From Nitrosopumilus sp. (GTDB lineage Archaea > Thermoproteota > Nitrososphaeria > Nitrososphaerales > Nitrosopumilaceae), in the NCBI GenBank assembly GCA_965218785.1, contig OZ244650.1:1927090-1991089 (forward strand): a stretch of 64,000 bases of DNA, read 5' to 3'. Below, in pieces: positions 3,938 to 5,536 of this stretch. The translations under genes and the position numbers were made by a program. Positions within the stretch are counted from its first letter, which is position 1, and the number at the start of each line of letters is the position of its first letter. Under the pieces are notes generated by a model. It was given only the letters and a program-made list of their open reading frames with translations, did no database searches and had not been told where the DNA came from.

Positions 3938-5536
3938 TTGCCCGATAAATTCATACTAATATCAGGACCAATATCTTCTGGAAAATCTAAACTCTCCAAT
4001 CAACTTTCAGATAAATTAGATGCTCGTTTGATAAAAACACGAGATATTTTGATACGTACAAAAAAAATCAACTCAAATGATCGAATATCTTTGCAAAAAG
4101 AAGGAGATAAACTAGATAAAAAAACTGATGGAAAATGGGTTTTAGAAGATTTAGATTGTGTAGTTAGAAACAATACTAAAGAAAATACTATTTTTGTTGT
4201 TGATTCTGTACGTATTTCTCAACAAATTGAAAGAATTAGAGATGCATTTAAACCCGTCATTCATTTACATCTCACAGCTCCAAATGATGTATTAAAAAAA
4301 AGATATCAGCAACGTTACAAAAAACAAGAAAATGTTCCATCATATAAACAAGTCAAATGTAACAAAACTGAAAAAAATATTGAAACTTTAGCACCTATAG
4401 CTGATGTCGTTATTGATACCAATCGTTGCAATGAAAATGATGTTTTTGTACGTGCTGCAAGTAGGATGTCCTTATTTGGTGAAAATGGAAATGGAATAGT
4501 TGATGTTGTAGTTGGAGGAGAATATGGAAGTGAAGGCAAAGGTCAGATTGTAGCCTATTTGTCTAAAGAATATGATCTTCTAGTTAGAGTTGGAGGTCCA
4601 AATGCAGGACATAGGGTTTTTGCAAAACCTGAATCTTACACACATCATCATCTTCCATCAGGTACAAAAAAAAGTACTGCTAAACTTTTGTTAGGACCCG
4701 GTATGGTTATCAATCCTAAAAATTTACTTACTGAAATTATGGAATGTGATGTAGAATCTGACAGATTAAGTATTGATCCCCAAGCTATGATTATTGATGA
4801 AGAGGATATTAAATCTGAAATTGAATTGGTAAAAACTATAGGTTCTACGGGTCAAGGTGTAGGCGCTGCAACTGCTAGAAAAATTCTCAAACGAAATAAA
4901 AATACACTTCTCGCTAAAGATGTTCGTGACTTAAAACAATACATTAAACCTGCCATTAAAGTACTTGAAAAAACATTTGCAAATAATGGACGAGTTTTAT
5001 TAGAAGGGACTCAGGGAACGGGTCTAAGTATTCATCATGGTTCATACCCATATGTAACATCTAGGGAAACTACTGTTTCAGGATGTTTGGCAGATGCTGG
5101 AATTCCACCATCTCGTGTAAGAAAAGTGATAATGGTATGTAGGACATATCCCATACGAGTTAAAAACCCAGAAGGTAAATCGTCGGGACCTATGAGTCAG
5201 GAAATCAGCTTAAACGAAATAAGTAAACGTTCTAAAATTCCATTAACTGAACTAAAAAAAACAGAAAGAACTTCTACTACTAACAAAAAACGAAGGATTG
5301 GTGAATTTGATTGGGATCTGATAAAAACAGCTACATTCTTGAACAGTCCTACGGATATTGCATTAACCTTTGCTGATTACTTGTCAATTAAAAATCGAAG
5401 TGCAAAAAGATTTGAACAATTAACAACAGATACAATAAATTTAATTGAGGAAATAGAACGTGTTACAAAGGCCAAAATATCTTTAATTGGCACTGGTTTT
5501 AATTCTAGAAGTATTATTGATAGACGGGATTGGTGA
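3938..5536 (+). CDS. P-loop nucleotide-kinase domain fused to adenylosuccinate synthetase-like (PurA/PurZ-family) domain
   Basis: N-terminus ISGPISSGKS, VVDSVR..Q, HLTAP...KRY (NMP/dephospho-CoA kinase fold). C-terminus GGEYGSEGKG, GGPNAGH, GSTGQGVG, LLEGTQG..LSIHHGSYPYVTSR, RTYPIRV, TTNKKRRIGEFD, LTFADYL. GAGGTG SD-like sequence at 3924-3929. Confidence 0.85.
   Translation: MPDKFILISGPISSGKSKLSNQLSDKLDARLIKTRDILIRTKKINSNDRISLQKEGDKLDKKTDGKWVLEDLDCVVRNNTKENTIFVVDSVRISQQIERIRDAFKPVIHLHLTAPNDVLKKRYQQRYKKQENVPSYKQVKCNKTEKNIETLAPIADVVIDTNRCNENDVFVRAASRMSLFGENGNGIVDVVVGGEYGSEGKGQIVAYLSKEYDLLVRVGGPNAGHRVFAKPESYTHHHLPSGTKKSTAKLLLGPGMVINPKNLLTEIMECDVESDRLSIDPQAMIIDEEDIKSEIELVKTIGSTGQGVGAATARKILKRNKNTLLAKDVRDLKQYIKPAIKVLEKTFANNGRVLLEGTQGTGLSIHHGSYPYVTSRETTVSGCLADAGIPPSRVRKVIMVCRTYPIRVKNPEGKSSGPMSQEISLNEISKRSKIPLTELKKTERTSTTNKKRRIGEFDWDLIKTATFLNSPTDIALTFADYLSIKNRSAKRFEQLTTDTINLIEEIERVTKAKISLIGTGFNSRSIIDRRDW

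Follow-up and report, generated by a model that had tools for sequence, protein, structure and literature searches.

The phage enzyme PurZ is known for changing the genetic alphabet itself, from A to Z. Described here is a gene encoding a kinase fused to a PurZ-like adenylosuccinate synthetase domain, found in a 64,000-nucleotide stretch of a Nitrosopumilus sp. genome (contig OZ244650.1; the whole stretch is called the window below) within an operon of three genes. The closest described systems are PurZ, its GTP-dependent phage relative PurZ0, the archaeal short form of the housekeeping enzyme PurA, the DarTG systems and a recently surveyed family of DarT-like ADP-ribosyltransferases (ARTs). 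According to the active-site sections of PMC8342488, PurZ differs from PurA in a P-loop Ser, an insertion past a conserved Val and a displacement at the R303-equivalent position. Its preference for deoxyribose is explained there by the insertion and the displacement, and the base-binding motif N-F-x-N/Q is assigned to ATP or dATP as donor. In those parts of PMC12884076 that deal with the superfamily, Asp13 is given as 99% conserved within the PurA group, PurZ0 genes sit in phage genomes beside DutZ/DmtZ, and four archaeal Ser/Gly sequences, originally from Tong et al. 2023, lie basal to PurZ and PurZ0. The 'Lmac_3114' section of a survey in BMC Genomics 2025 (PMC12522546) reports a DarT-like ART family in bacteria only, with adenylosuccinate synthetase in 60% of neighbourhoods, describes the linked synthetase gene as having an AAA domain, and names Rhizobium and Mesorhizobium operons.

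The fused gene of the window is a foreign, horizontally acquired accessory enzyme and not the housekeeping purA, and by sequence and tree comparison its ligase domain is from the non-Asp (Ser P-loop) lineage of the PurA superfamily that also gave phage PurZ and PurZ0. With confidence that is about evenly balanced, it is read here as the part of a mobile, DarTG-like conflict system that converts nucleotides; the substrate, by a chemistry deduced from its motifs, is probably a guanine (deoxy)nucleotide. Positions are collected in Table 1.

Table 1. Features of the cassette and its surroundings in the window
Feature	Position	Strand	Remarks
Nuclease open reading frame	2-1114	+	PD-(D/E)XK / Cas4-like; open at the 5' end of the window
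Transposase-like fragment	1886..2251	-	Adjoins cassette; weak DUF772 transposase-domain match, E 7e-4, under cut-off
Gene 1	2471..3925	+	ImmA/IrrE-type Peptidase_M78 (HEIAH) domain and C-terminal macrodomain
Shine-Dalgarno-like motif	3924-3929		GAGGTG
Gene 2, fused gene	3938-5536	+	TTG start
Gene 2, N-terminal NMP-kinase-fold domain	3938..4492	+	Walker A SGPISSGKS
Gene 2, short adenylosuccinate-synthetase-type domain	4499..5536	+	PurZ-like signatures
Ser198 codon	4529-4531	+	
Gene 3	5530..6198	+	DUF7002, DarT-like ADP-ribosyltransferase fold
RtcA	8325-9389	+	RNA 3'-terminal phosphate cyclase
tRNA-Val	10692-10766	-	

The fused gene encodes 532 amino acids (aa), starts 8 nucleotides (nt) 3' of its Shine-Dalgarno-like motif and has an N-terminus (MPDK..ILISGP) that agrees with those of its homologues. 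A domain with the fold of nucleoside monophosphate (NMP) kinases (aa 1-180) is followed by a short domain of the adenylosuccinate synthetase type. The Pfam model Adenylsucc_synt (PF00709) matched at 200.4 bits (E 5e-59, cut-off 27), which places the protein in the superfamily; at the level of sequence, this resemblance is far above chance. The top-ranked NCBIfam model was that of the archaeal short PurA (PRK04293, NF003295), at 294.4 bits under a cut-off of 368, and TIGR00184 gave 214.5 bits under a cut-off of 395.55, so that both housekeeping PurA equivalog cut-offs were missed. The PurZ model NF038379 was likewise matched below its cut-off (211.7 against 300 bits), and in PHROGs the protein fell to phrog_1211, '2-aminooxy adenylosuccinate synthetase', at 248.9 bits. 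When chains of the PDB were ranked by sequence, the ligase domain scored 186 bits with Pyrococcus horikoshii PurA (5k7x), which has equal domain length and matched with its C-terminal segment included, 137 with phiVC8 PurZ, 107 with S-2L PurZ and 96 (95.7) with PurZ0 of Gordonia phage Archimedes (7vf6).

Active sites were compared in a MAFFT alignment of 18 sequences. The residue of the window protein that corresponds to the GDEGKG Asp, both in the PurA of its own genome and in four PurAs from bacteria, is Ser198, and phiVC8 PurZ and the PurZ0 of the Gordonia phage have a Ser in the same column. All 35 fused homologues that were aligned keep this Ser. The replacement of the PurA Asp by Ser, reported in a preliminary description made from the sequence alone, was thus borne out by translation and alignment, and the motifs quoted there (GGEYGSEGKG, EGTQG, RTYPIRV, TTNKKRR and LTFADYL) are all present in the translation. 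The P-loop reads GSEGKG in the fused clade, GDEGKG in canonical PurA (that of the host genome included), GSTGKG in PurZ and GSEAKG in PurZ0, and the corresponding base-binding motifs are T-F-x-D, TKLD, NFxN and TMxD. The fused clade shares IGSTGQG, TSR, R-x-x-PIRV and the Phe of the base motif with PurZ, and in the window protein extra residues follow RTYPIRV and a Lys occupies the position of Escherichia coli R303, as in phiVC8 PurZ; PurA has K-x-Y-x-TRV and TGRxRR instead. The description of the active site as PurZ-like therefore agrees with the alignment. Identity to phage PurZ (N6-succino-2-amino-2'-deoxyadenylate synthase; phiVC8, S-2L), with which a short PurA-type fold is shared, is only 30-34%.

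The adenine-type motif N-F-x-N/Q of PurZ is absent, the window having T-F-A-D and the whole fused clade an invariant TFxD. As had been proposed, the Asp of PurA and PurZ0 is kept here, unlike in PurZ, and its combination with a G-S-E P-loop is that of PurZ0. The retained Asp is consistent with GTP as donor, and GTP rather than ATP is expected from the motif because it is TFxD and not NFxN/Q. Residues S198, H225, Q359, R402, P405, I406, R407, R452, R453, T477, F478, D480 and Y481 were invariant in the 35 fused homologues and, because R452, R453, H225, Q359 and others are among them, the ligase domain looks catalytically competent.

An exhaustive search was carried out over 1.84 billion representatives, the best 150 matches of which were used. 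GSEGKG was found in 115 of these: in 50 the loop began over 100 aa into the protein, and 65 were unfused; 2 had GDEGKG, and 22 were outside the pattern, being fragments or carrying GSEAKG-type loops. For tree building, 32 representatives covering less than 85% of the query and 3 without a recognisable P-loop were left out, and 26 named rows were added, comprising 7 phage, own-genome or host housekeeping PurA rows, 7 PurAs of relatives, 5 long bacterial PurAs as outgroup and sequences from fetched loci. A FastTree of 141 rows and an IQ-TREE 'quick' tree (LG+C20, SH-aLRT only) of an author-chosen subset of 76 rows were constructed. In both, the Asp-type short PurAs fell outside the non-Asp clade with support 99. 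Within the non-Asp clade, a group with the PurZ0 phages, another with the PurZ phages and a third in which most members are kinase-fused are united with support 99 (FastTree) and 97 (IQ-TREE, SH-aLRT, 50 rows). Rows were picked by similarity to the query, the trees carry no bootstraps, and the branching order of these groups was left unresolved. The window protein belongs to the mostly kinase-fused clade (53 rows in FastTree, 26 in IQ-TREE, support 99 in both), which is separate from the PurZ group; nor is it nested among the PurZ0 phages, which form their own group with support 100 on another branch. Its closest rows are a Cenarchaeum metagenome-assembled genome (MAG), one metagenomic protein and an Acidobacteriaceae MAG.

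The N-terminal 185 aa matched Pfam AAA_18 (39.9 bits) and AAA_33 (27.1 bits), over aa 6-133 for the two, and their AlphaFold2 (AF2) model, with a pLDDT of 94.6, has an NMP-kinase fold. The top fold match was the AdkA-like protein of Sulfolobus with AMP bound (3lw7; Z 18.2, root-mean-square deviation (rmsd) 3.0, 165 aa; Foldseek TM 0.69-0.75), followed by uridylate kinase (Z 15.8) and by phosphomevalonate, gluconate and adenylate kinases. Walker A motif and fold together identify the NMP-kinase-like domain that had been proposed. Across 37 sequences, G10, G15, K16, R49, Q53, D60, W67, R92, Q96, H109, H111, R122, E145 and D156 were invariant; these are the Walker A residues and a further polar set, and they do not reveal the substrate. 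The preliminary description had regarded the fusion as an abnormal architecture. The fusion is real but not a one-off, the kinase-fused clade being large: clustering at 90% identity gave at least 120 clusters, and tblastn confirmed 559 stretches of metagenome sequence. Other arrangements were also seen, with two kinase domains ahead of the PurZ-like domain in P0135 and a Ser-type PurA-like domain fused to a dCTP-deaminase-like (DCD) domain in P0230.

The host genome is archaeal, its SSU and LSU rRNA giving best-in-clan archaeal matches. It encodes a separate PurA of 333 aa (GDEGKGK, NAGHT, TGRQRR, ITKLD), as well as PurB (432.5 bits), and this separate GDEGKG purA, together with the placement outside the canonical Asp clades in two trees, upholds the earlier view that the fused protein is not the housekeeping PurA. 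None of 60 relatives, 36 of them of the same genus, contained the fused gene, each showing only a PurA of about 337 aa or its fragments. Canonical PurA was also present in each of four other examined hosts of the fused gene. Of 401 genomes sampled from the phylum, 2 had a score over cut-off for DUF7002, the family of gene 3, and that of the window was one of them. The GC content of positions 2001-6000 is 0.32-0.34, against 0.35-0.47 in the other 2-kb segments of the window.

Neither the operon, with its ImmA/IrrE-macrodomain and DarT-like ART genes, nor its mobile and sporadic spread was part of the preliminary description. Within a conserved operon, the fused gene stands between an ImmA/IrrE-macrodomain gene, which precedes it, and a DUF7002 gene, which follows. 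For metagenomic context, 79 loci were kept of the 559 confirmed stretches, and only loci with enough flank were counted. An ImmA/IrrE-macrodomain homologue lay directly upstream in 60 of 63 testable loci, and 68 of 70 had a DUF7002 homologue directly downstream, which scored below 100 bits in 13 cases. Exceptions were L052 (two convergent cassettes), L087, L125 (fused gene alone) and L118 (DUF7002 gene split and on the other strand). The same three genes in the same order were found in genomes of Acidobacteriaceae, Binatia, Gemmatimonadales and Cenarchaeum. No fourth conserved gene emerged from 433 flanking open reading frames, the largest cluster of which covered 10 loci and had no Pfam family; smaller ones were sigma-70-like (6 loci), PHP+AAA_18 (4 loci) and AAA (4 loci).

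Some of these loci showed further peculiarities. At L052 (6833-12384), a single metagenome contig, a fused gene with its DUF7002 gene faces an ImmA-macrodomain gene with a second fused gene. The 13 weak third-gene matches scored 35-71 bits (e.g. L069 7392-8060, L078 8638-9270 and L110 8714-9355) and may represent a divergent subfamily of the ART-like partner. At three of these 13 loci, L069, L077 and L104, a weak match to the kinase-PurZ profile was also found downstream on the opposite strand, the reading frame at L069 encoding a PHP+AAA_18 protein of 1021 aa.

Gene 1, with an uncertain start codon (484 aa as read here against 447-464 aa in homologues), matched Pfam Peptidase_M78 (45.2 bits, aa 104-202) and PADLOC capP (E 1.4e-17, aa 74-272), and its C-terminal 197 aa matched the PDB macrodomains BT1257 (2afc, E 8e-35), 5e3b (E 3e-29) and CHD1L (E 1e-10). 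Gene 3 overlaps the end of the fused gene by 7 nt at its stop codon. Its Pfam match was PF22531 (208.7 bits), a family that is DUF7002 and not DarT, and a profile of 46 DUF7002 sequences matched no PDB chain at E values up to 10. The AF2 model (pLDDT 95.2) aligned in VIA-align with E. coli DarT1 (8baq; Z 11.0, rmsd 3.0, 158 aa) and with other DarTs (Z 9.4, 8.3 and 8.2), with Tpt1 and other ARTs lower in the search; the top Foldseek matches were likewise DarT. The residues H19, F107, W109, Y124 and E190 were invariant in 46 sequences, and H19, F107-W109 and E190 agree with the motifs Hxx, FFW and xxE given for the 'Lmac_3114' family in its section of PMC12522546. Gene callers often start DUF7002 genes at an internal Met20 (203-207 aa, 91% coverage; P0274 and many of P0280-P0344), by which the invariant His19 of LYHMA is lost; the longer, TTG-started form of gene 3 aligns with homologue N-termini of the type MV... 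A structure prediction of the fused protein in complex with the DUF7002 protein scored 0.00 against a mark of 0.32, which is evidence neither way.

The cassette is spread sporadically across bacterial phyla, is carried by plasmids and occurs in two archaea. In 11 plasmid records, 80% or more of the fused protein was covered. Among these are a conjugative Agrobacterium plasmid and a Burkholderia thailandensis plasmid that has only the fused gene and the DUF7002 gene, with a transposase, an integrase and a PDDEXK nuclease around them. The cassette is also present on three IMG/VR contigs; an IMG/VR scan with the window's own protein gave no match. In Rhizobiaceae variants (L010 5364-9655, L011 and L136 7341-9609), gene 1 is replaced by a YfbR-like HD protein and a conserved protein of about 450 aa. 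The HD protein is 5'-deoxynucleotidase-like, a hint at deoxynucleotides, and its companion (454-458 aa) had no Pfam family and no similarity to gene 1, a protein atlas lead to PPDK_N being weak (0.86). In the RefSeq plasmid records L136 and L137, the fused genes are annotated as 'adenylosuccinate synthetase' with the Gene Ontology (GO) term 'purine nucleotide biosynthetic process', and 'hypothetical protein' is the label given to the DUF7002 genes; the plain synthetase name and purine-biosynthesis term are probably wrong for the fused genes.

The nuclease reading frame of Table 1 closely precedes the cassette, and the B. thailandensis plasmid cassette likewise stands beside a nuclease of this type; the nuclease may be a coincidence or a defence-island neighbour. 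The RtcA and tRNA-Val genes downstream stand among ordinary housekeeping genes.

Taken as a whole, the module looks like a conflict system of the toxin-antitoxin or phage-defence type, in a three-gene form and a core two-gene form. A conflict system is preferred over purine biosynthesis or Z-genome synthesis because the operon is conserved with an ART and a macrodomain and the distribution is mobile and sporadic. Like DarTG, the cassette is compact and mobile and combines a DarT-like ART fold with a macrodomain; unlike in DarTG, the macrodomain is fused to an ImmA/IrrE peptidase and a kinase-PurZ-like enzyme stands between the two. In the proposed mechanism, the ligase domain would use GTP to phosphorylate O6 of a guanine-type, probably deoxy, mononucleotide and would then exchange the O6 phosphate for aspartate, giving an N6-succino-2-aminoadenine nucleotide, and the kinase domain would phosphorylate either the precursor of the substrate or the product of the ligase. 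The (d)G pool would thereby be depleted or corrupted, or a signal made; in parallel, gene 3 would ADP-ribosylate its target, a modification that the macrodomain of gene 1 could reverse. This chemistry is suggested by the signatures shared with PurZ and PurZ0 and by the 5'-deoxynucleotidase-like HD neighbour of some variants; from these we infer the substrate and products. The defence role and any casting of the three proteins as toxin, antitoxin or sensor are likewise putative. A more specific version, in which bacteria and archaea use a PurZ-type enzyme in an innate immune or addiction module, is unlikely to be right. There, a trigger would set the enzyme to make succino-2-aminoadenine (Z-type) nucleotides from dGMP, serving as a poison or a signal, alongside DarT-like ADP-ribosylation of nucleic acid.

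Several observations weigh against the conflict-system reading or its chemistry. The macrodomain of gene 1 is nearest to the BT1257/5e3b/CHD1L type and scored 22.5 bits against a cut-off of 250 with the DarG equivalog, no PADLOC model, DarT included, matched gene 3, and none matched the PurA-like domain, PADLOC matches to the fused protein being weak ones confined to its kinase part. Proteobacterial versions lack the ImmA-macrodomain gene, and a simple logic of ART toxin and macrodomain antitoxin is for this reason not general. The ligase domain scores higher with P. horikoshii PurA than with PurZ, which leaves room for an IMP-type substrate, and the residue at the R303-equivalent position differs within the clade (K, R or T). 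The Ser P-loop, found in 115 of the 150 representatives, also occurs in an unfused Paenibacillus gene in a biosynthesis-like context, so that Ser by itself cannot fix the substrate. At this Paenibacillus sp. locus (L012 4305-9585), the unfused Ser-P-loop gene stands amid NUDIX, AdoHcy-hydrolase-like and DegT-type aminotransferase genes, an arrangement that might represent a cluster for nucleoside natural products in which this enzyme lineage is employed. Such a role was rejected for the fused gene, as the context was met only at this unfused locus and not in the fused clade.

Other explanations start from the same data. It is rather unlikely that the kinase-PurZ-like protein is not an effector but a regulator or signal generator that senses or makes a nucleotide, for example by converting dNMPs released in infection, and so acts as an on-off switch for the ART or the ImmA/IrrE protease; in the two-gene versions it may be an antitoxin-like partner of the ART. 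The fused gene and the DUF7002 gene are the invariable core, Proteobacterial plasmids carrying only these two with overlapping reading frames, and a layout with the partner upstream and the toxin downstream resembles toxin-antitoxin pairs. The kinase part also weakly resembles the N-terminal kinase part of an anti-phage dCTP deaminase model (PADLOC dCTPase, 25.6 bits, E 1.3e-6), and macrodomains bind adenine-nucleotide-like ligands. The full conservation of catalytic and aspartate-site residues fits a turnover enzyme instead, although a maker of signals would need them too. The PurZ-type signatures, the common clade with PurZ and PurZ0, the PHROG match and a host PurB that could finish the pathway would all suit a true PurZ or PurZ0 that supplies precursors of dZTP, with the host or an integrated virus swapping adenine for 2-aminoadenine in DNA. 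Such Z-base biosynthesis is nevertheless very unlikely, given that the protein lies outside both phage groups and below the PurZ cut-off, that it shares its operon with genes for an ART and a macrodomain-peptidase, and that no DatZ-, MazZ- or DpoZ-type or virus gene was found among the cassette-flanking genes of the window scanned against Pfam. The IMG/VR scan with the window protein was also empty, and all 219 matching phage records were below 60% identity, the best at 37%.

The position of the archaeal short PurA as the best overall match, together with the synthetase label of the RefSeq plasmid copies, would agree with a second, specialised adenylosuccinate synthetase that turns IMP into adenylosuccinate and works with a kinase to supply AMP/ADP. 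In its section on the family, the 2025 survey points in this direction by suggesting that the availability of NAD+ or purines may be modulated for the ART via purine synthesis (PMC12522546). The catalytic Asp that the PurA group conserves so strictly is, however, Ser in every aligned fused homologue, both PurA equivalog cut-offs were missed and every host genome checked has a canonical PurA, which makes such an isozyme the least probable of the explanations weighed here and a highly improbable one.

The enzyme superfamily, the likeness to phage enzymes and the linkage of ART and adenylosuccinate synthetase genes (in print in 2025) are known already. The Ser/PurZ-like nature of the cellular clade, its clade-wide kinase fusion, the ImmA-macrodomain partner, the archaeal presence and the conflict-system reading were not found in the literature searched, on which other papers or supplements may bear; literature on DUF7002, and on adenylosuccinate synthetase with anti-phage defence, macro domains or ADP-ribosyltransferases, gave nothing relevant. 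In the 'Lmac_3114' section of PMC12522546, there is no mention of a Ser P-loop or PurZ likeness, of an ImmA-macrodomain partner or of a conflict system. What emerges is a large cellular clade akin to PurZ, fused to a kinase and tied to an operon with a macrodomain-peptidase and a DarT-like ART. Should the clade prove to have PurZ-like chemistry, this would constitute a new kind of nucleotide-based conflict mechanism, and the origin of the Z pathway would become directly testable. If the immune-module reading is true, the clade would be the nearest cellular kin of phage PurZ and PurZ0, which would give the pathway to Z-genomes a common origin with a conflict system of the host.

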